A stretch of DNA of 64,000 nucleotides from Legionellaceae bacterium (GTDB lineage: Bacteria; Pseudomonadota; Gammaproteobacteria; Legionellales; Legionellaceae). The notes below the pieces were generated by a model that saw nothing but the letters and a program-made list of their open reading frames with translations, searched no databases and had not been told where the DNA came from. A program made the translations under genes and the position numbers. Location: positions 16,155 through 80,154 of the forward strand of contig JAGOTG010000001.1 in assembly GCA_018061965.1 (NCBI GenBank). The letters run 5' to 3'. Each line of letters opens with the position of its first letter. Positions within the stretch are counted from its first letter, which is position 1. Shown piece after piece: positions 32,510 to 41,771 of this stretch.

Positions 32510-32529
<20 letters not shown>

Positions 32530-34246
32530 AACCAGTAGTAGGGTGTGGTTTATTGGTATGGCCTTCCAGCAGAGAGTGTTCTTTGAATAGCTTAAGTTTT
32601 TTAAAATTGACACTCACACCAGCATCTTGAACTTGACGCAACAACTGCATTAAATAATCCGTGAATTTTCTAAACAAAATATTCATGCTCAAACTTAAGC
32701 TGATGGTTTGGTGTTCTTTTTTTTGTATGATACCTTGAGCAACCATTGAAAATGGCATGTCATATTTCTTCAATTCTCGTAAAATAGATAATTCTGTTCT
32801 CTCGATAGCATGGGTAGTCATTTTTAAATTATGGATAGCAACTGGACTAACCTGAGTAAGCAGATATTTTACAGCTGAAAATTGGTTTTTTCGGATAGCC
32901 AAAAGTAAGTACTCTATTTTTTCTTCGTCAGAAAAAGCAAAGCAGCTGGCGTCACCCAATTCGATAAGAGTTTGAATGCACTTTGCATTACCACTTTTAA
33001 TCGCTGGTTTGATGATATCTATATAGGAGTTTTTTTCTGAAAAAATGCAGGTCATTATTTCATCATGAATCTGGGCATTGTTATCGTAAAGGCTACCCTT
33101 TGCGCCATAGATTTTTTGTGCGGCATCCAATAATAGCGTTTTGAGTACTTTATGATTTCCACCTAATGCAGCCTGATAAATACAGTTGCGTAACTTCCTT
33201 TTATCAAATAATGCTTCGTAATCAGTTGGACACTCTGTTGAAAGTAGATCCATTGTTTCCTCTTGGCCAAGTAAGAGCGCCATTTCAAAGTACTCTTCTA
33301 TATAAGAGGGAGAGTATTCTATAACCTTTGGTAATAAGGCTTCTATTGCCTTGATATTGCAATCTAAAATAGCACGTCGCATGGCTCTTTTAAAATCATG
33401 TGCACCGGCTGAAATGAGTGCGTTGATGACGATGTCATCGCAATATGTGGCAGCAGAAAACAAATGATCATTCAAATCTTCAATATCATTTATCTCTTGA
33501 TGAAGGATGTATTTTTCATACAAATGCATGCTGGTTGGTAATGGAGGCACTCTTGGGTCTTTCATCTTAGGGTGACGTAACAGATTCATTTGTAGGCCCC
33601 AATACTTATCAGGGGCTGTTGGATCACCAAGTTGCTTGCGAAGTTCGTGTACCAAAGATACTGCGTCTTCAAAATATCTAAAGCCATCAGAATAGTTGGG
33701 GTCATACACTGCATATTGCCCATTACTTTGTGTGACACAAACAGAATGATTGGGGCCACTCATGATCATGGCTTCATCATGATTTAAATTAATGTCAGAG
33801 ATGATGTCAGGCCAGTTTTCATTTTTCGAGCTCATTCCAAAATCAAAAGACGAACTTAAGCGTTCACCATCGATTTCTAAACATTGCATCGAGTTTTTTT
33901 GTGTGATGCTCTTTTCATATTCGTGCGGAGATTGAGTCAACGCTACTTCAACTGCAAAATGGTTAATAGCATTATCATGTTCTGAATCAGGCTGCACGTT
34001 ACCTGATATCAGATATAAGATATGCTTAAACTCTCTGGTTCTGTTTTCCAAGACATATTTGGCATATACCGTTGATAAACCTCGACACATCCCTGCAGCT
34101 CCCATTCGTATGGGAAAATGATGCCATGCTAAATAAGCATTTAATCGTTTAATAATCTGCAACTGATTAATCGGCTCTTCATCCACGTCTTGTTCGAGCC
34201 TATTGTATTTTATATTCCCTTGCTCTTGGTGGCTGCTTTCTGACAT
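32510..34246 (-). CDS. Putative effector with an N-terminal YopT-like (peptidase C58-type) Cys-His-Asp protease domain and C-terminal ankyrin-like helical repeats
   Basis: This is a 578-aa protein. The candidate catalytic residues are C54 (AAGMCRGLSTVYAKYVL), H167 (GPNHSVCV) and D182 (AVYDPNYSDG). The spacings are 113 and 15 residues, against 119 and 16 for YopT C139/H258/D274. The C-terminal half has repeats of the ankyrin type (INALISAGAHDF..., AALGGNHKVLKTLLLDA, AIKSGNAKCIQTLIELGD, LLLAIRKNQFSAVKYLLTQ). By eye the gene is more AT-rich than its neighbours. Confidence 0.7.
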
Positions 34247-34398: not shown

Positions 34399-34605
34399 AT
34401 GCCAACAACACAAATAATACAAAACGCATTTCTTGCCCAATTAATGAAAGATGAAGTGCCTGTGTCTATTTTTTTGGTGAGTGGTATCAAATTGCATGGA
34501 GTTGTGAGCGATTTTGATGAGCATGTCATTATGCTGAAGTCTACGGCGACTCAAATGGTTTATAAGCACGCTATTTCTACGGTGGTGCCTACTGTAAGCC
34601 GATAA
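34399..34605 (+). CDS. hfq: RNA chaperone Hfq (minimal Sm core, 68 aa)
   Basis: [54 protein letters not shown] aligns with E. coli [62 protein letters not shown] is present. Confidence 0.9.
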
Positions 34606-34750
34606 TTTGAAGAAGATAGAAAGGGTCAATCAGTGTGTCGCCAATTGACCCAGTGGAATGACACATAGCAAGTCCAACCTCGCGTCGATACTATCTCATA
34701 GTTCGATCATTCTTGCAAGGCACTGGTTATGTAAGAAGTCTAATGTATCT

Positions 34751-35797
34751 TTAGGCCAGACTTTCCGAGTTGAGAGTGCTGGAGACCGGAATGATGTTTT
34801 CACTGAGCACAAGTTCTGCACCCTGATGGTCATAGCTCGGAGAAGGTTTAACAGTACGCCCGAACTGTTCTTGACTAAAGGCTATGCGGGCAGCGACGGA
34901 TTCTCGGCCTTGTGCAGCTCTGTCTTCGATTGCCCGATAGCGATGAAGAGCGCCTTCTCTGTTTGCAATTTGAATATTTAAGCCAGGTCGAGCATTAAGC
35001 TCTAGCATCATGGGCCCTTGGTCTTTATCTAGGACAATATCTACTCCGATGTATCCCAATCCCGTAAGTTCATAACAACTGGCCGCGATTTCTAAAATTT
35101 TGTCCCAATAGGGAATCGCAATATCTTTAATTGGATTTAAGGTGTCGGGATGATAATCAATCGTATCATTATGAAAAACACCGCCTAATGTGAGGCCGGT
35201 AGCCAAATCTACGCCAGCACCGATGGCACCTTGATGTAGATTGGCTTTTCCACCCGATCCTTGTGTAGGTAAGCGCACCATCGCCATGGCGGGATAGCCT
35301 AGCAAAACGATAATCCGAATGTCAGGAACCCCTTCATGACTTACTTGTGCAAAGACCGGATCCACGATGACTCGCCGCTCAATAATGGCGTAATCGGCAT
35401 TGCCTCCAAGACTATAGGCGCCAGAAATCAAACTGGATAAATGATAAGAGATGTCTTGATTTGTGAGTAATTTTCCATTGATTTGGCGGTAGCGCCCCAA
35501 AACTCGGCTGGTTATGACTAAAATACCGTCACCTCCGGCACCGTGAGCGGGTTTGATCACAAAATCTGTATAAGGTTCTAAGAGTAAGTCAATTTTTTTA
35601 ATTTCATGTTCGGTTTCCACCGTGCCATACAATGTGGGAACGGCAATGTTTGAGTTGATCGCCAAACGTTTGGTTTTTAGTTTGTCATCTACCAAGGGGT
35701 ATAATTTACGGCGGTTATATTTCAACACATAATCGCCATTCCTTTGATTAATACTCATTACACCAGCCTTGCGTAACTGACGGTATATGCCTAGCAT
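34751..35797 (-). CDS. RimK-like ATP-grasp enzyme (alpha-L-glutamate ligase-related protein)
   Basis: This 348-aa protein has ATP-grasp landmarks: VIKPAHGAGGDGILVI, VPDIRIIVLLGYPAMAMVRLPT..SGGKANLHQGAIGAGVD and GVDIVLDKDQGPMMLELNARPGL. It is the last gene of a 3-gene operon. Confidence 0.85.
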   Translation of the reverse strand: MLGIYRQLRKAGVMSINQRNGDYVLKYNRRKLYPLVDDKLKTKRLAINSNIAVPTLYGTVETEHEIKKIDLLLEPYTDFVIKPAHGAGGDGILVITSRVLGRYRQINGKLLTNQDISYHLSSLISGAYSLGGNADYAIIERRVIVDPVFAQVSHEGVPDIRIIVLLGYPAMAMVRLPTQGSGGKANLHQGAIGAGVDLATGLTLGGVFHNDTIDYHPDTLNPIKDIAIPYWDKILEIAASCYELTGLGYIGVDIVLDKDQGPMMLELNARPGLNIQIANREGALHRYRAIEDRAAQGRESVAARIAFSQEQFGRTVKPSPSYDHQGAELVLSENIIPVSSTLNSESLA

Positions 35798-37323
35798 GCT
35801 TTGACTCGGGATAAGGCATTGAAGCGGAATAATTCAAACAGTCGATATCCGCGGTATTGGCCGAACCACAAAATCAAGGCCAAAATAATGAGTAAAAGTT
35901 CTGGGAAAGCAAAAAGCAAATATTGCAGCGGTTGATAAGACATGGCGAAATAAGCAATCACAGCGGCAATCAAACTGCCTCCGCCTGATTTGATGGCATC
36001 GGAGGCACCCCTTTCATCCCAAGAAATGCACATTCTTTCGATAGTCATAGTTAAAATAACCATAGGGAATAAAGCGGCAGACAGACCAGCTTCTAAGCCC
36101 AGATTTTGGCTGATCACTGAGAGCATGAGCATGAGCAAAACCACAATCGTCAAGATTGCAGCTAATCTCGGGACCAAAAGTAAGCGCAGTTTTTCCAAAT
36201 AAAACCGAGCGAGTAGTCCCAGCGATACCAAAAAGCTAAATAAACAAACGCCTAAAATGACATGGGTTTCTCGAAATGCCAGAGCAATCAATATAGGCAT
36301 AAATGTACCAAACGTTTTTAGCCCAATAAAATTACGGAGTAATAAAATAATGAAAGCCCCAATGGGTAATGCCAGCAGGATTTTATAAGTCTCTTGAACA
36401 TGAATAGGTAATTCTAACGGAGAAAACCGTAATAATTGCGATTCTGTTTGGAGACCATGGGTTTTGGCGATGCTTAATGCATTAATCGGAGTGGGTGAAA
36501 TCGTCAATGAAAATTGTGGCTTTTTGCCACCAATAACATCGAACATAGGGTCAGTGCCATACTGCCAAGTTAAGAAATTTTTTGGAAACCCAGCCGCACT
36601 CGTTTTGGGATCGATGTACACCCAGTCTTGTCCATTATAGACACCCAGATACACACTCATATTGGCTTTTCTTTGCTCGAGCAAATGGAGGCCTTGGATA
36701 GTGATTGCCGGTATTTTGGCTTGATTCAAGACTAAAATTGCCGCATTGATCAAATGGATACCATCAAATTCATTGCCCACCAATAGTTTGGCATTGCCTG
36801 ATTTTTTGTTCAATTCACTTAAGGTTGCTTGCGCAAAGGTTTGTATGTCTGCAGAGGCTTCACGCGCTTGTCTGGTGATGGCCATCACAGCAGTTTTTTG
36901 ATTCTCATCGAGTAAGTCAATTTTGTTATGTGGGGGTTTGCCTAACACCGGGGGCGCATTATCCGTTTCACGAACAACGGCTCGATAATATAAAGATTGC
37001 GGTTTGGTGGCCGCACGTCGTAAAGACCAGACAACCTGACGATTATAGCCATTTAAACTCGTGGTGATCCCATAGTTTTGGGCCACAAAATATTCGTCAA
37101 GAATAGCAAAATTAGGGGGTAAATAAGGCACTGTAAAACTGGCTTTGACTGGTTTGTTATCTTCTGCGACAAAATGCAGATTGGCTTCAATCATCCAGCT
37201 ATTGACGTTTTCGGTGTCGGTAAATGGGACGTCTAAGACGTGGTGCCGATAAACGAACATACTTAGCCCAATGAGCGTCAAGGCTACAATGAGTCCGTAT
37301 AAATGACGTTGCGTGGAATTCAT
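35791..37323 (-). CDS. Inactive-transglutaminase-like periplasmic domain fused to a 7-TM module
   Basis: This 510-aa protein has one N-terminal TM helix, a ~300-aa extracytoplasmic domain and then about seven C-terminal TM helices (ILLALPIGAFIILLL ... LLLIILALILWFGQY). It overlaps the ATP-grasp gene by 7 nt and the protease gene by 4 nt. Confidence 0.75.
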   Translation of the reverse strand: MNSTQRHLYGLIVALTLIGLSMFVYRHHVLDVPFTDTENVNSWMIEANLHFVAEDNKPVKASFTVPYLPPNFAILDEYFVAQNYGITTSLNGYNRQVVWSLRRAATKPQSLYYRAVVRETDNAPPVLGKPPHNKIDLLDENQKTAVMAITRQAREASADIQTFAQATLSELNKKSGNAKLLVGNEFDGIHLINAAILVLNQAKIPAITIQGLHLLEQRKANMSVYLGVYNGQDWVYIDPKTSAAGFPKNFLTWQYGTDPMFDVIGGKKPQFSLTISPTPINALSIAKTHGLQTESQLLRFSPLELPIHVQETYKILLALPIGAFIILLLRNFIGLKTFGTFMPILIALAFRETHVILGVCLFSFLVSLGLLARFYLEKLRLLLVPRLAAILTIVVLLMLMLSVISQNLGLEAGLSAALFPMVILTMTIERMCISWDERGASDAIKSGGGSLIAAVIAYFAMSYQPLQYLLFAFPELLLIILALILWFGQYRGYRLFELFRFNALSRVKAC

Positions 37324-37859
37324 GATACAGAAGCCTTTTCAGTAGAGCTGTTATCCGGTTCCCTGTGGGTAAATTTTTTGCTAGGGTCAATAATGCCGTC
37401 GAATGCAATAATAGCTTCCCTACCTAAAAGCAAAGGGTAAATAAAGCGGCTGCGGTTGGTTAAATTCACACGAATAATTTTTTCAGAATTATTCAGGCGA
37501 ATTGGCATTAATACCACAGGACGTTTCACATGCTCGCGCAATAATGAGTTGATTTGATGCTCTCCCGTGCGCATTTTGATTTGTACTTTTCCGACGTATT
37601 CACATTCAAAGACAATATCCCCTTCCTTACTTGGAACCATAAAGCTGAGATAGGGTATGCCATGTTTGCGAATTTCATGAATTTTGATCGCGTTCAACGA
37701 TGCGGTTTTTGCCCCGGTATCTAATTTAGCAGACAGGGTCAAATCCCGTTGGGTTAAGGTCGCTTTTTCAAGGTATCCGTAGATTGTTTTGGAATGGTTT
37801 GCCATAGCTTGTCCGGCTAGTAAAGACCAAAAAATAAAAAACAGCGTAAAAATGCGCAT
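37320..37859 (-). CDS. Secreted retropepsin-like aspartic protease (family annotated as putative ATP-dependent zinc protease)
   Basis: This 179-aa protein has the signal peptide MRIFTLFFIFWSLLAGQAMA. The catalytic-type motif is AKLDTGAKTASL (D-T-G-A). It is the first gene of the operon. Confidence 0.75.
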   Translation of the reverse strand: MRIFTLFFIFWSLLAGQAMANHSKTIYGYLEKATLTQRDLTLSAKLDTGAKTASLNAIKIHEIRKHGIPYLSFMVPSKEGDIVFECEYVGKVQIKMRTGEHQINSLLREHVKRPVVLMPIRLNNSEKIIRVNLTNRSRFIYPLLLGREAIIAFDGIIDPSKKFTHREPDNSSTEKASVS

Positions 37860-38272
37860 TCACGCTCCCAGGCGGCATAATAAATTTCACTGATCCTAAC
37901 AGATTTTATGCCTAAGTCACAGTCTATATCAGAGTTTTGCTAAAACGTCGATGGGATGCAAAGGGTTTTTTTAAGAAATAGCGATCTAATTGCAATCAAT
38001 TTGATCTTATTTGATCCTGGGTGTTTGTTTGGGTTTTTGACGCTGGCCACTCAAGATGAACGTGCTTCGTTGTTCTCCTCTTCCTATCTCTCTCAATTTG
38101 TTGTATACTATGCGCACTCCTAAACGACAATATTTGTGGTCGTTGATGATCAAGAACAGATACTTTTCATTGAGACATTGTCATATGATTGAGCCTGAGT
38201 TTCTGAATGTGGATGCCGAGAATTATGGATATCCCCGAGAGAGCCTGTTTCTTGATGCTATTGGAGGGATGA

Positions 38273-41155
38273 ATGGCTGGCAATAGTGTAGATATTCATT
38301 CAGCCCAAACTCATTCCACTCAACCAGTTTCAAGTGTTCAAAATTCTAATTTCCCCAATGTAGCGCTGCGTAAACTACGCGCTTCTTTGTTTAGTTTTAC
38401 TACCCAAGCCAATCAAACCTGTGAAAACCTCACAAATCCTGTGCGCGAATTTATTCAACCTTATCAGCAGACTGGGAATGTTTTGCGTGCGTATGGGTTT
38501 GCAGATGCTGTCAATCTTAGTTTTAGTTTGTGTGGGATGTACTATTTTTTTAAGCACGCCTATCAGAATTATGATCAAATGCTCTCCCCTCAAATATTTC
38601 AACTCTCTGCACATGAGCTCCATGCAGCAGAAAACACCCCAGAAGGATTGGCTCTGGCCGTTCTGTTTACTGTGTTTTTAGTTGGGTTTTCCACTTTGGG
38701 GAGTCATTATGATGAGAACCGGGATGAACCTTGGGTAAAGAATCTGGTTTTTTTATGGCCATTTTTTCGGACTGCATGTAAGCAAATCAAATGGTGGGCG
38801 AAAGGATGGTGGGCCTTGCTATCCCTGCTTTTGCAATATCAGGTCTCGCAGCAAGATTTTTTAATTCAGCTTTTTTTCCCTCTTGCCATGCTAGGTGGCA
38901 TTTTTGCAGCGATGAATTCTGTTTGGTTACGCTGGATGCGGGATCAACGCAAAGAGATGGTAAAAAATAATCTCACTTTGATTGAAGGGCTTAAATCTCC
39001 ACTCCATATCTTGGATAAGATGCCCAACTCTCTAACTGGGTATGAACGTTCTTTGATATGTTTGCAAGAAACCACCAAGGACGGCGAAGAAATTAAGTCA
39101 TTATACTATGTCAATGTTCTGAAAAATGACGCTGGCAAGGAAGAGGCAAAAGCCGAGCGCATTGAGATGAGCGAACCGGAGTGGCGTGATTTGTATCAAG
39201 AAGTCGAAAAGCTACAAACAGAGAATATCCATGCGAGAATGAGGCAATATTTATCCTATATCAATAGACTATCTGCGACGCAAGCTGAGCCAAGTTTAGT
39301 AGCCCCAACAACGACCCGCTTGCATTTTATTGCTGATGTGAACGATTTCAGTCAGGGTTCTGTGAGGGTTGCTGACGAGAATGATGCTGAGGGCACTAAA
39401 GTATGGCGAAGTATTTGTAATTCTTATGTATACTTTTCCCAGGCAGAAGGGGTTGATGATGGACAACGCCTTTTTTATGTTGATAGTTCTGGAGGATTGA
39501 TTGCGCAAACAGAAAAAGTTCACTATGTTAATAGCGCAGGCATGTCGGTTGAGCAAGGAGAGAAAAGTGCGGTATTTCATAAAAAATTCCAACAAGTACA
39601 GCAAGACAAAAATGTATTAAATCTTTCAACCATTCAATTAAAATCGGTACAACATGTGAAAATTAAGCGTGACGGCAAGAAATTTGACTACAGTTACGCA
39701 CAATTTGTCGATTTGCGCCGTAATATTCTGAATACCGAGTCCGAGCAAGAAACCCAATCTGGCTGGGGTGAATGGGTTGCCTCTGGTCTTGAGACTGGGT
39801 CTAAGCAAACAAAAATTAAAACGCAATATGATTGGGTTAAAGTGCTTGCTCCTATTTCGGCGGGCGCATCTAGCCTCGGCGATGGACTATATTTCTACGT
39901 GTTTGTAGCAAAAATGACTGTTGCTACTTTGTCGCCTTATATGGCAACTATAATGTTAGGTTCTTCAGTGGCATTGTTTCTCACTTGTATTGTGACACGT
40001 ATTGCAGAAGAATTTGATTTTCAGAGGCGTCTTGAAGTCACCGTACTGCGAACGGAAGCCGAATTGTCGAAAAAAGATTGTGGGTTTTTACATGAGCAAT
40101 TGGAAAAATTATTGGATGATGATAACGGTGATGTTAATAGTGAAGCGCAATTACAATCCATCATCACGGCTCTTCAATACTCAAGGGCTGGTAGAGAGAA
40201 ACAATTAAAGCGTTATAAGCTTGATCCGACACAGCAGCCTATTTATGAAGGACTGACTCCGCATGACAACACCGTCGTGTTGTTATGGAATGAACTTGCC
40301 GATGAATTTAAGCTTAGTATAGAGCTGCAAGACCAATTAAGAGTTAAATTAAACCGTTCTTATTGGGCTGCAGGCTTTGAAGGTTTGCAGAATGGCTTGG
40401 CAATACAAGGTGCCATTGCTAGCTTTTCGTTTATGATTTCTAGTTTGTGTTATATTTCAGCAGCAGCCTGTCCGCCTGCATTTATGTTAACGTGCTTAGG
40501 GATAGGGATTGCTGCAATTATCGTATCTCTGCTTCAGGGGTGCATCAGTCATTACTTTTATATAGACAGAGTGAAACAAACGAAACAAGAGTTGTCCTTA
40601 TCGTTCCACGCAGAGATGTTGGCAAAAATGACCGGCCAGGAGGGCGTTCAGGTTGATCGTGAGGCATTAAAGAAAACGATTGATTATGTGAACAATCAAC
40701 CGTTAGAGCCACCCGTTGATTTTGTGGTGATTGAATGGTGCGAAATATTTCGTTTGTTGTTCAAAGGTGCCGTAAAGGGGAAAAATGCTGCTATCGAAGT
40801 TCTGGCTAGATTTTTAGAAGGCTCGGATAATAAGTGGCTATTACCTGTTGTAATAGTGGCTGGTGTGATCAGTTTTTCTGGAGCGTTAGGTATGCGCGCA
40901 ACGGCGAAAGGATTTGCGGTGGGTCGCCCTGATTCACTTAATACAGGAAATGTTGAAAAGAAAGCGCGTACATTCTTCGATGAAGATAATAGAATTGACA
41001 AAAGAGCCGTGTTTTCCTCATCTGTTTCGATGGCAATTCGTCAGCAGGAGCTTGAGGTTGATGACGATATTGCCAGCGTTGATGAGGATGAGGGTCTTGA
41101 GTACGACCAAATCTGTGGTGATAATGGGTCTCCGTTTATTTCACCCCTCATATAG
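38273..41155 (+). CDS. Very large membrane/coiled-coil protein (960 aa), hypothetical and effector-like
   Basis: The ATG at 38273 has a GGAGGG SD. The N-terminal third has about 4-5 TM helices (LALAVLFTVFLVGFSTLG, WWALLSLLLQY, LFFPLAMLGGIFAAMNSVWL). The long soluble middle includes a coiled-coil. Further TM helices follow (LYFYVFVAKMTVATL, IMLGSSVALFLTCIV, AACPPAFMLTCLGIGIAAIIVSLL, LLPVVIVAGVISFSGALG). The C-terminus is acidic (ELEVDDDIASVDEDEGLEYDQ). Confidence 0.7.
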   Translation: MAGNSVDIHSAQTHSTQPVSSVQNSNFPNVALRKLRASLFSFTTQANQTCENLTNPVREFIQPYQQTGNVLRAYGFADAVNLSFSLCGMYYFFKHAYQNYDQMLSPQIFQLSAHELHAAENTPEGLALAVLFTVFLVGFSTLGSHYDENRDEPWVKNLVFLWPFFRTACKQIKWWAKGWWALLSLLLQYQVSQQDFLIQLFFPLAMLGGIFAAMNSVWLRWMRDQRKEMVKNNLTLIEGLKSPLHILDKMPNSLTGYERSLICLQETTKDGEEIKSLYYVNVLKNDAGKEEAKAERIEMSEPEWRDLYQEVEKLQTENIHARMRQYLSYINRLSATQAEPSLVAPTTTRLHFIADVNDFSQGSVRVADENDAEGTKVWRSICNSYVYFSQAEGVDDGQRLFYVDSSGGLIAQTEKVHYVNSAGMSVEQGEKSAVFHKKFQQVQQDKNVLNLSTIQLKSVQHVKIKRDGKKFDYSYAQFVDLRRNILNTESEQETQSGWGEWVASGLETGSKQTKIKTQYDWVKVLAPISAGASSLGDGLYFYVFVAKMTVATLSPYMATIMLGSSVALFLTCIVTRIAEEFDFQRRLEVTVLRTEAELSKKDCGFLHEQLEKLLDDDNGDVNSEAQLQSIITALQYSRAGREKQLKRYKLDPTQQPIYEGLTPHDNTVVLLWNELADEFKLSIELQDQLRVKLNRSYWAAGFEGLQNGLAIQGAIASFSFMISSLCYISAAACPPAFMLTCLGIGIAAIIVSLLQGCISHYFYIDRVKQTKQELSLSFHAEMLAKMTGQEGVQVDREALKKTIDYVNNQPLEPPVDFVVIEWCEIFRLLFKGAVKGKNAAIEVLARFLEGSDNKWLLPVVIVAGVISFSGALGMRATAKGFAVGRPDSLNTGNVEKKARTFFDEDNRIDKRAVFSSSVSMAIRQQELEVDDDIASVDEDEGLEYDQICGDNGSPFISPLI

Positions 41156-41177: not shown

Positions 41178-41771
41178 CTAAGATTGTTGTGAATAAAGTT
41201 CCGGATTTAAACTGGGGTCATTATACATTTTCAATTGATGATAGCGGCGAAAAGTACGAGTTTGTACGACAAAATCCTGGAGTAATTGCCGTAAACATTG
41301 GCTTAATTGGTTATGCTGAGCATGGAGTATATGGAGTTTCTGTTTGCATAATTGGTGATGAGACTCCTCTGCACTGGCGCGTGTGGTTTGAGCGGTCATA
41401 TAATAAGATTTCAGAGATAAAATAGACAAACGGTCGATGATCATGCCAGGTGTTTCAGAATGGACGGGGCATGTCTCTGCTACAGACAACGTAATGATGT
41501 TAGCCAGATATTCATCAATGGCTTCCATGCGATTATTCCGTTGTTGATTAAAATGATCGATAGCGCGTTTGGCTTCATAGACAAAGCTATGACCTTTGTC
41601 TTCACGACGTGCTCGATCTTCAGCCTGCCATAACTGAAAATTAAAAGCATGATTTTCTTCAATGAGTTGGAGAAGCCCCTCATTTTGAATTTGCACGTGG
41701 CCGCTGTGCCAACGGCGGATGGCGTTTTGATGCAAATTGGTTATCTCTTCAAGCAATATATCAAAATTCAT
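41178..41771 (-). CDS. Hypothetical protein (possibly DUF4254-like)
   Basis: This 197-aa soluble, helical protein contains the motif NFQLWQAEDRARRED. The length and motif remind me of DUF4254, but I cannot verify that. Confidence 0.55.
   Translation of the reverse strand: MNFDILLEEITNLHQNAIRRWHSGHVQIQNEGLLQLIEENHAFNFQLWQAEDRARREDKGHSFVYEAKRAIDHFNQQRNNRMEAIDEYLANIITLSVAETCPVHSETPGMIIDRLSILSLKSYYMTAQTTRASAEESHHQLCKQKLHILHAQHNQLSQCLRQLLQDFVVQTRTFRRYHQLKMYNDPSLNPELYSQQS

Follow-up and report, generated by a model that had tools for sequence, protein, structure and literature searches.

The rloABC operon of Legionellaceae as a putative envelope-spanning module of producer and antagonist

What does a set of three overlapping genes for a secreted protease, a membrane protein and an ATP-grasp ligase do at the cell envelope of Legionellaceae? 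We addressed this question at positions 34,751 to 37,859 of a 64,000-nucleotide (nt) stretch of DNA from a Legionellaceae bacterium (GenBank assembly GCA_018061965.1, contig JAGOTG010000001.1, positions 16,155 to 80,154 of the forward strand), hereafter referred to as the window, in whose numbering all coordinates are given. The three-gene unit is almost certainly the Legionella ortholog of rloABC, an operon named in Pseudomonas aeruginosa PA14 (rloA, PA14_41710 rloB and PA14_41730 rloC; Lormand et al., mBio 2025, PMC12239564), and the result for the window is that these three genes can be securely annotated as rloA, rloB and rloC. Taken as a whole, the unit is probably best explained as a producer/antagonist module that spans the envelope. 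An initial annotation, made from the sequence alone, had described three overlapping genes on the minus strand, and the list of open reading frames (ORFs) gives exactly these coordinates, with overlaps of 4 nt and 7 nt:

37320..37859, minus strand: rloA, secreted retropepsin-like aspartic peptidase, 179 amino acids (aa); PF05618, NCBIfam RloA1/RloA2 and PDB matches.
35791..37323, minus strand: rloB, inner-membrane protein, 510 aa, with an N-terminal transmembrane (TM) helix, a periplasmic inactive transglutaminase-like domain and a seven-transmembrane (7TM) domain; PF14400, PF14402 and NCBIfam RloB.
34751..35797, minus strand: rloC, cytoplasmic ATP-grasp amidoligase, 348 aa; TIGR02291, PF14397, AlphaFold2 (AF2) model and motif residues.
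37320..37323, minus strand: overlap of the rloA stop and the rloB start, ATGA (4 nt), within the junction sequence ...GTATCATGAATTCC...
35791..35797, minus strand: overlap of the rloB stop and the rloC start, ATGCTAG (7 nt), within the junction sequence ...AAAGCATGCTAGGC...

The families that had been named for the three proteins were all found by hidden Markov model (HMM) searches. Pfam assigns PF05618 to RloA (E 8e-24), PF14400 Transglut_i_TM (E 2e-42, aa 25-184) and PF14402 7TM_transglut (E 2e-99) to RloB, and the expected RimK-like ATP-grasp of RloC appears as PF14397 ATPgrasp_ST (E 1e-88) and as TIGR02291 ‘alpha-L-glutamate ligase-like’, which RloC passes with 457 bits against a cutoff of 314. 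The NCBIfam models RloA1 and RloA2 (approximately 111 bits for the window protein; curated cutoffs of 280 and 250) and RloB (455 bits; cutoff of 900) are of the ‘exception’ type and tuned to near-identical Pseudomonas proteins; scores below their cutoffs mean that the window proteins are not close orthologs, not that they belong to a different family. It was the names of these models that led us to the work of Lormand et al. (PMC12239564). Among solved structures, RloA matches PDB 2pma (Lpg0085) at E 7e-51 over residues 24-166, and the Pseudomonas RloA structures 9g58 and 9g59 at E 3e-23 and 1.5e-20, respectively.

In P. aeruginosa, the rlo system affects osmotic tolerance, biofilm formation and β-lactam sensitivity. 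Loss of all three secreted RloA paralogs of PA14 is lethal in hypoosmotic medium and abolishes growth in salt-free medium, and the triple deletion also disturbs biofilm formation, β-lactam tolerance and cell shape (PMC12239564). The defects are suppressed when either rloB or rloC is deleted; what RloB and RloC generate is harmful in the absence of RloA (PMC12239564). In crystal structures, two RloA orthologs form C2 dimers whose interface carries the DTG motif, and they have long flaps together with a basic channel; in vitro, RloA cleaved reporters with 8 or 10 consecutive Glu residues and left those with 6 or fewer intact (PMC12239564). The same study recognised 2pma, from Legionella pneumophila, as RloA-like (PMC12239564).

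These data bear directly on the initial annotation, which had stated that no experimental substrate, product or phenotype was known; with the description of rloABC in P. aeruginosa in 2025 (PMC12239564), that statement is out of date. The novelty of the unit is largely removed, the operon having been named and partly characterised in that year, and the annotation itself stands. Neighbourhoods of this composition were reportedly predicted long before: Iyer, Abhiman, Burroughs and Aravind (Mol Biosyst 2009; cited in PMC12096838) are said to have found ATP-grasp/inactive-transglutaminase-7TM/aspartyl-protease combinations by comparative genomics. The same work is reportedly the source of PF14397, PF14400 and PF14402 and of the idea, offered as a prediction only, that such loci synthesise a peptide or peptide tag at the membrane. 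The window holds the same trio, and the genetics and biochemistry of 2025 now support the producer/antagonist relation.

We then asked how far the unit is held together across relatives. An RloB query retrieved 185 confirmed loci from reference genomes, and the best 80 of the 185, all from Legionellaceae, were used; the top locus (L001) is a contig, 99% identical, of an uncultured Legionella metagenome-assembled genome (MAG). When the three proteins were searched with tblastn, rloA lay directly upstream of rloB in 80/80 loci and rloC directly downstream in 79/80, the exception (L070) being a 2.2-kb contig that ends before rloC. The junction between rloA and rloB overlaps in 70 of 78 loci, and that between rloB and rloC overlaps or abuts in 71 of 77. 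The order is the same in Aeromonas caviae, at identities of 24% (RloA), 36% (RloB) and 49% (RloC). Six metagenomic RloB representatives with 31-33% identity to the window protein were also sampled: a PF05618 gene is immediately upstream in five of them, with the upstream gene of the sixth cut by the contig end, and a PF14397 gene is immediately downstream in four, the other two again being cut by contig ends. Because the order is kept in 79/80 Legionellaceae loci, in A. caviae and in distant metagenomic relatives, the arrangement is more than chance adjacency. The genes that flank the trio vary among the six metagenomic loci while the trio stays together, and the trio is therefore a self-contained module.

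Thus, the proposal that the genes form one functional unit is well founded, with both junctions overlapping in the window and gene order and tight junctions kept across relatives, and the co-conservation on which it hinged extends from Legionellaceae to A. caviae and the metagenomic loci. By contrast, the suggestion that retention of the unit in a streamlined, host-adapted-looking genome is notable finds no support in the window: rloABC is a core gene cluster of the genus, conserved throughout Legionellaceae, and its surroundings are ordinary (gyrB, a recN-like gene, rnr and rlmB, plus effector-like genes).

Compared with the P. aeruginosa operon, the window has the same gene order, the same three families, the same RloA signal peptide, DTGA motif and basic channel residues, the same RloB architecture and an RloC of the same TIGR02291 type; order and families recur across Gammaproteobacteria. 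Identity to the window proteins is only moderate (for RloA, the E value of 3e-23 given above), and whereas P. aeruginosa has three redundant rloA paralogs, one rloA copy is visible here, with no paralog of rloA, rimK or rimB within the 64-kb window. By orthology, we consider it likely that the producer/antagonist logic transfers from P. aeruginosa to Legionella.

A signal peptide and a D-T-G-A motif had been noted in gene 1, and both a Sec-type signal and D47-T-G-A50 are present and conserved in relatives:

37800..37859, minus strand: RloA signal peptide, aa 1-20, MRIFTLFFIFWSLLAGQAMA, with predicted cleavage after A-M-A and a mature start at NHSK; read from the sequence.
37710..37721, minus strand: RloA catalytic motif D47-T48-G49-A50, which aligns to the DTGA of 2pma, 9g58 and 9g59.

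At the end of the signal peptide, M19 is found in 77/77 and A20 in 74/77 Legionellaceae orthologs, and the crystal chain of 2pma aligns only from RloA residue 24 on. DTGA is retained in 76 of the 77. K45, D47, R113 and R136 are invariant in all 77, and by alignment and numbering offset they correspond to Pseudomonas K46, D48, R114 and R137; these four residues were mutated in Pseudomonas RloA, and K46, R114 and R137 coordinate polyglutamate (PMC12239564). Mature RloA is net basic, with 25 Lys and Arg against 17 Asp and Glu residues. Its direct ortholog is Lpg0085, the L. pneumophila RloA, which gave its name to the ‘Lpg0085-like’ SCOP family of acid proteases and shares with the window protein the LDTGAK and LGR(D/E) motifs and the dimeric retropepsin-like fold. 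The 2pma structure dates from 2007 and was deposited, without an assay, as a protein of unknown function; window RloA comes from a different, uncultured Legionella lineage. By orthology, Legionella RloA would be a secreted dimeric retropepsin-like protease with a basic channel that cleaves runs of at least eight Glu residues. One difference concerns the disulfide conserved in periplasmic RloA orthologs (PMC12239564): unlike these Pseudomonas enzymes, Legionella RloA is without it. Window RloA has a single Cys (C86), and mature Legionellaceae RloA proteins have either none (35 sequences) or one (42 sequences).

The naming of RloA in databases is inconsistent. RefSeq WP_232048481.1 of L. adelaidensis (L081 3540-3998) is a ‘RimK/LysX family protein’, and PF05618 carries the older label ‘Putative ATP-dependent zinc protease’ (Zn_protease) and the newer label ‘RimB-like’. 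Two of these labels for RloA, ‘Zn_protease’ and ‘RimK/LysX family protein’, are in our view wrong or unhelpful, as is the name ‘HD superfamily hydrolase’ that UniRef gives to RloB.

On the producing side, RloC is predicted to be an active ligase because all ATP-grasp motif residues are invariant, its fold resembles those of ArgX/LysX and RimK, and it passes TIGR02291. The residues in question, K82, the G86-G91 loop, E140, D159, R161, K184-A-N-L-H188, D253, E266 and N268, are the same in 75/75 sequences. The AF2 model of RloC is usable (predicted template modelling score (pTM) 0.73). Among solved folds, ArgX/LysX and RimK are the closest to this model, and DcsG, Ddl and cyanophycin synthetase come next (TM-scores of 0.4-0.5, 14-21% identity); sequence and profile searches of solved structures gave only marginal matches (E ~0.05), to RimK and TTLLs. 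The designation of gene 3 as ‘RimK type’ therefore held in part. RloC is an ATP-grasp protein with a RimK-like fold and is cytoplasmic, having neither a TM segment nor a signal peptide. However, its 38 bits with the RimK family model TIGR00768 fall short of the cutoff of 143, and its match to the RimK domain PF08443 is short and partial (8e-8, profile positions 132-170 only). In the alignment, residue 98 of RimK is matched by residue 37 of RloC, ahead of which there are only two short helices of low confidence; RloC therefore lacks the N-terminal domain. In classical ATP-grasp ligases, this domain contributes to acceptor binding. RloC, which also carries insertions in its central region, may depend on a partner.

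ArgX/LysX are ATP-grasp enzymes that ligate to the C-terminal Glu of a partner protein. Together with LysW they form the system structurally closest to the RloC model (3vpb, E 1e-9), at 14-16% identity and a TM-score of ~0.45-0.5. However, no LysW-like carrier gene is linked to rloABC, and the biosynthetic context differs. We also considered that RloC might extend an acidic C terminus of RloB or of RloC itself, in the manner of RimK acting on RpsF, and rejected this idea: the C termini are not acidic, and the tail of RloB is a conserved basic helix.

The kinship with RimK raises a further explanation, namely that RloC is an additional RimK for the polyglutamylation of ribosomal protein S6, with RloA as its RimB. 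The RimK/RimB system (with RimA) likewise joins an ATP-grasp ligase to a retropepsin-like protease that cleaves poly-α-glutamate, and RloC shares the Mg-ATP motif and fold with RimK. RloA is homologous to RimB (model NF052261, E 9e-9; its 35 bits are below the cutoff of 200), and polyglutamylated RpsF is among its in vitro substrates (PMC12239564). RimK and RimB, however, are wholly cytoplasmic and operate without a membrane component. RimB has no signal peptide, whereas RloA has one, and a membrane protein is always encoded between rloA and rloC. RloC, as described above, lacks the N-terminal domain of RimK and fails its family HMM, and deletion of rimB shows no genetic interaction with rloA mutants (PMC12239564). 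A role of the trio in ribosome modification is thus effectively refuted.

The Pfam assignment of RloC points in yet another direction, as PF14397, its best family, is described as ‘sugar-transfer associated ATP-grasp’. RloC might accordingly ligate Glu onto a sugar- or lipid-linked precursor or onto a peptidoglycan stem, with RloB scaffolding or flipping the product and RloA removing the peptide. RloC also has weak or structural matches to Ddl and to a pseudomurein ATP-grasp model. The altered cell shape, β-lactam sensitivity and osmotic lysis in Pseudomonas fit as well, and the authors who described them suggest a defect in peptidoglycan homeostasis (PMC12239564); in Shewanella, an rloB homolog affects membrane-vesicle production (PMC12096838). 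On the other hand, in the loci examined the trio has no linked gene of the glycosyltransferase, flippase or Mur type, the trio is self-contained and its flanks are variable, and the top structural neighbours of RloC are ligases that act on protein C termini (ArgX/LysX and RimK) rather than Ddl. Modification of an envelope glycan or of peptidoglycan is, in our judgement, a distinctly improbable function of the operon.

If RloC needs a partner in a producer/antagonist module, RloB is the candidate at hand. Gene 2 had been described as encoding a large extracytoplasmic domain followed by about seven TM helices, an architecture that we recovered: an N-terminal TM helix (residues 7-25) is followed by ~280 aa without a hydrophobic segment and then by a polytopic C-terminal domain that PF14402 covers end to end.

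36406..37248, minus strand: RloB extracytoplasmic domain, aa 26-306, transglutaminase-like without a nucleophile; PF14400, no Cys.
35794..36405, minus strand: RloB 7TM domain and basic amphipathic C-terminal helix, aa 307-510; PF14402, the conserved core of the protein.

In a deep search for RloB, the sequences formed 1,967 clusters (50% identity) and were uniformly ~505-520 aa long; conservation was measured on an alignment of 139 diverse sequences. In this alignment, positions conserved at 80% or more make up 29% of the 7TM domain and 6% of the periplasmic domain; the conserved residues include R330, the G339-T-F-M-P343 loop, R373, R386, E429, R430, E437, E475, E497 and R500. The periplasmic domain of RloB has no Cys in the window (residues 26-314) and is Cys-free in 118 of the 139 relatives, and it can therefore not be a catalytic transglutaminase. 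When compared by eye with what we take to be the canonical transglutaminase core, the Cys and His positions look substituted and the DP motif (D238-P239) is kept. We accordingly rejected RloB as a catalytic transglutaminase or papain-like enzyme, its ectodomain having no Cys and thus no Cys-His-Asp triad.

The AF2 model of RloB, built from a 47-sequence Legionellaceae alignment, is poor (predicted local distance difference test (pLDDT) 54, pTM 0.36); Foldseek returned no significant match for it, and the weak top matches were all transglutaminase or papain-like folds. Single-sequence and profile searches of solved structures found no solved relative of RloB. With seven helices after the ectodomain assumed from Pfam, the positive-inside rule places most of the conserved charged residues, along with the basic C-terminal ‘ELxRF(K/R)xL’ helix, on the cytoplasmic face, an orientation that we infer from these two premises.

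A variable periplasmic domain coupled to a highly conserved cytoplasmic face is also the pattern typical of a receptor. RloB could be a 7TM sensor that binds an envelope-derived ligand with its periplasmic domain and, on its cytoplasmic face, activates RloC; the product of RloC would stay in the cytoplasm or the inner leaflet, and RloA would destroy the ligand or clip the RloB ectodomain, keeping the pathway off. Such a receptor fits the epistasis equally well, with loss of RloA leaving RloB and RloC hyperactive and toxic, and it sits well with the lack of transporter-like similarity in RloB. In UniRef, several RloB homologs go by the name ‘Membrane-associated HD superfamily hydrolase’, which hints at a 7TM domain of the 7TM-receptor (7TMR) type. 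However, a permissive Pfam scan of the isolated 7TM domain and ectodomain returned only PF14402 and PF14400, and the suspected 7TMR-HD link is no more than a lead. Moreover, the conserved basic channel of RloA and its strict requirement for at least eight Glu residues point to a polyglutamate substrate. No P. aeruginosa periplasmic protein encodes a Glu run of at least eight (PMC12239564), runs of six or more Asp or Glu residues are absent from all ORFs of the window, and the relatives of RloB likewise have no acidic run of at least six. As no encoded polyglutamate run was found, a substrate made without the ribosome and able to reach the periplasm is still required, and we consider a receptor function of RloB unlikely.

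The explanation that we favour, in which RloB and RloC produce what RloA removes, can be set out as follows. Since RloC, of the LysX/ArgX/RimK clade, is without an acceptor-binding domain of its own, it presumably works on the cytoplasmic side of RloB, where it would dock on the conserved charge-rich face of the 7TM domain. Once docked, RloC would use ATP to build an acidic, Glu-rich peptide or peptide tag, and RloB would pass or present this product to the periplasmic side, with its catalytically dead transglutaminase-like domain serving as a periplasmic binding module. RloA would trim or degrade the product and thereby set its steady-state level. An impermeant periplasmic polyanion of this kind would add to the osmotic pressure of the periplasm and to the charge of the envelope. 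We propose that unchecked accumulation of the polyanion is the reason why a strain without RloA dies in low-osmolarity medium and shows altered shape and β-lactam tolerance. The specifics of polyglutamate export are held more tentatively than the module as a whole, and may well prove wrong.

Several points weigh against this scheme. Transport by RloB is hypothetical, and no similarity to known transporters was detected in structure searches, with Foldseek on the poor model or in the permissive Pfam scan. The Glu specificity of RloC rests only on the name of its family and on cleavage by RloA in vitro, and given the ‘sugar-transfer associated’ description of PF14397, the acceptor need not be a peptide. 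The argument on RloB topology is built on a model of low confidence and on a crude hydropathy scan, and the disulfide-less RloA of Legionella could differ in stability or location. The authors of the Pseudomonas study favour a link to peptidoglycan rather than a polyanionic, osmotic mechanism (PMC12239564). Our literature search found no paper defining the product of RloC in any organism and none mentioning lpg0083 or lpg0084, the presumed rloB/rloC pair of L. pneumophila.

A bolder version of the scheme would make RloB and RloC an unrecognised kind of trans-membrane peptide synthase and exporter, in which the cytoplasmic face of the 7TM domain completes an acceptor-less ligase and poly-α-glutamate, or a similar acidic polymer, is extruded as a tunable fixed-charge osmolyte with RloA as the degrading ‘valve’. 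We regard this as a speculative extension that is rather unlikely to hold in full. If it were true, a genus-core module of Legionella that lies beside an LceA-like gene (see below) could matter for survival when the bacteria pass between fresh water and the host vacuole.

For experiments, Legionella provides a simpler genetic background than P. aeruginosa, as one rloA copy is visible, by the operon, and a crystal structure of RloA (2pma) is in hand. R330, R373, R386, E429, R430 and R500 of RloB and the short conserved N terminus of RloC are targets for mutagenesis. As for the chemistry of RloB and RloC, the window does not make the problem newly testable.

Four further features belong to the operon and its flanks:

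37865..37869, minus strand: Shine-Dalgarno sequence GGGAG, 5 nt upstream of the rloA ATG; read from the sequence.
37903..37932, minus strand: sigma-70-like promoter candidate CTGATA-18-TAAAAT upstream of rloA; consensus match only.
34613..34651, minus strand: terminator-like hairpin with an 11-bp GC-containing stem, GGGTCAAT...ATTGACCC, followed by a T-rich tail, ~100 nt past the rloC stop.
34754..34855, minus strand: lineage-specific C-terminal tail of RloC, aa 315-348, 34 aa, disordered, pLDDT <50.

CTGATA-18-TAAAAT is a candidate promoter, and in the scan upstream of rloA such matches were no more frequent in the region than in shuffled sequence. The disordered 34-aa tail of RloC is an addition relative to P. 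aeruginosa rloABC. Most RloC orthologs are 314-317 aa long, and a tail of this length is common only to the window and the near-identical MAG locus L001.

Two other identities were examined and rejected. A search with PADLOC gave no match for any of the three proteins, arguing against a defence system, and no phage homologs were found that would indicate a mobile element. Two PLSDB records labelled as plasmids, NZ_LR134414.1 (L081) and NZ_AP026896.1 (L082), do carry the operon. The first, from Legionella, is 54 kb long and non-mobilizable and has chromosomal-type synteny; the second is a 4.9-Mb Aeromonas record. Both are most likely chromosomal sequence.

Divergent from rloA lies a gene for a 960-aa multi-TM protein (38273-41155, plus strand) that has no Pfam or NCBIfam match. 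A homolog occupies the same position in 67 of the 80 Legionellaceae loci; the L. norrlandica protein (L076 3310-5232) has 640 aa and that of L. adelaidensis 745 aa. In L. pneumophila, lpg0086 encodes the genus-core Dot/Icm effector LceA, of 648 aa and with 8 TM segments (PMC8760000). As lpg0085 is RloA and lpg0086 is LceA, the 960-aa gene is very probably an LceA ortholog with an insertion of ~270 aa (residues ~242-513), and throughout the genus a core effector seems to be a fixed, back-to-back neighbour of rloABC. Beyond the LceA-like gene, a DUF4254 gene is found both in the window (41178-41771, minus strand) and in L. adelaidensis (L081 428-1018), so that the conserved block comprises DUF4254, LceA-like, rloA, rloB and rloC.

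On the other side, a 68-aa Hfq is encoded at 34399-34605 on the plus strand (Pfam 3e-24; NCBIfam NF001602, 95.3 bits against a cutoff of 95), convergent with rloC and sharing with it the intervening hairpin. Of the 80 loci, only the near-identical MAG contig L001 has Hfq in the same place, and the placement is therefore lineage-specific; the gene may be a second, short copy of hfq. A gene at 32510-34246 (minus strand) encodes a 578-aa protein with weak ankyrin-repeat matches and no homolog in the other loci. By eye, its N terminus resembles a papain- or transglutaminase-like Cys-His-Asp arrangement (GMCRGLS ... NHSVCV ... YDPN), and it is a candidate lineage-specific effector.

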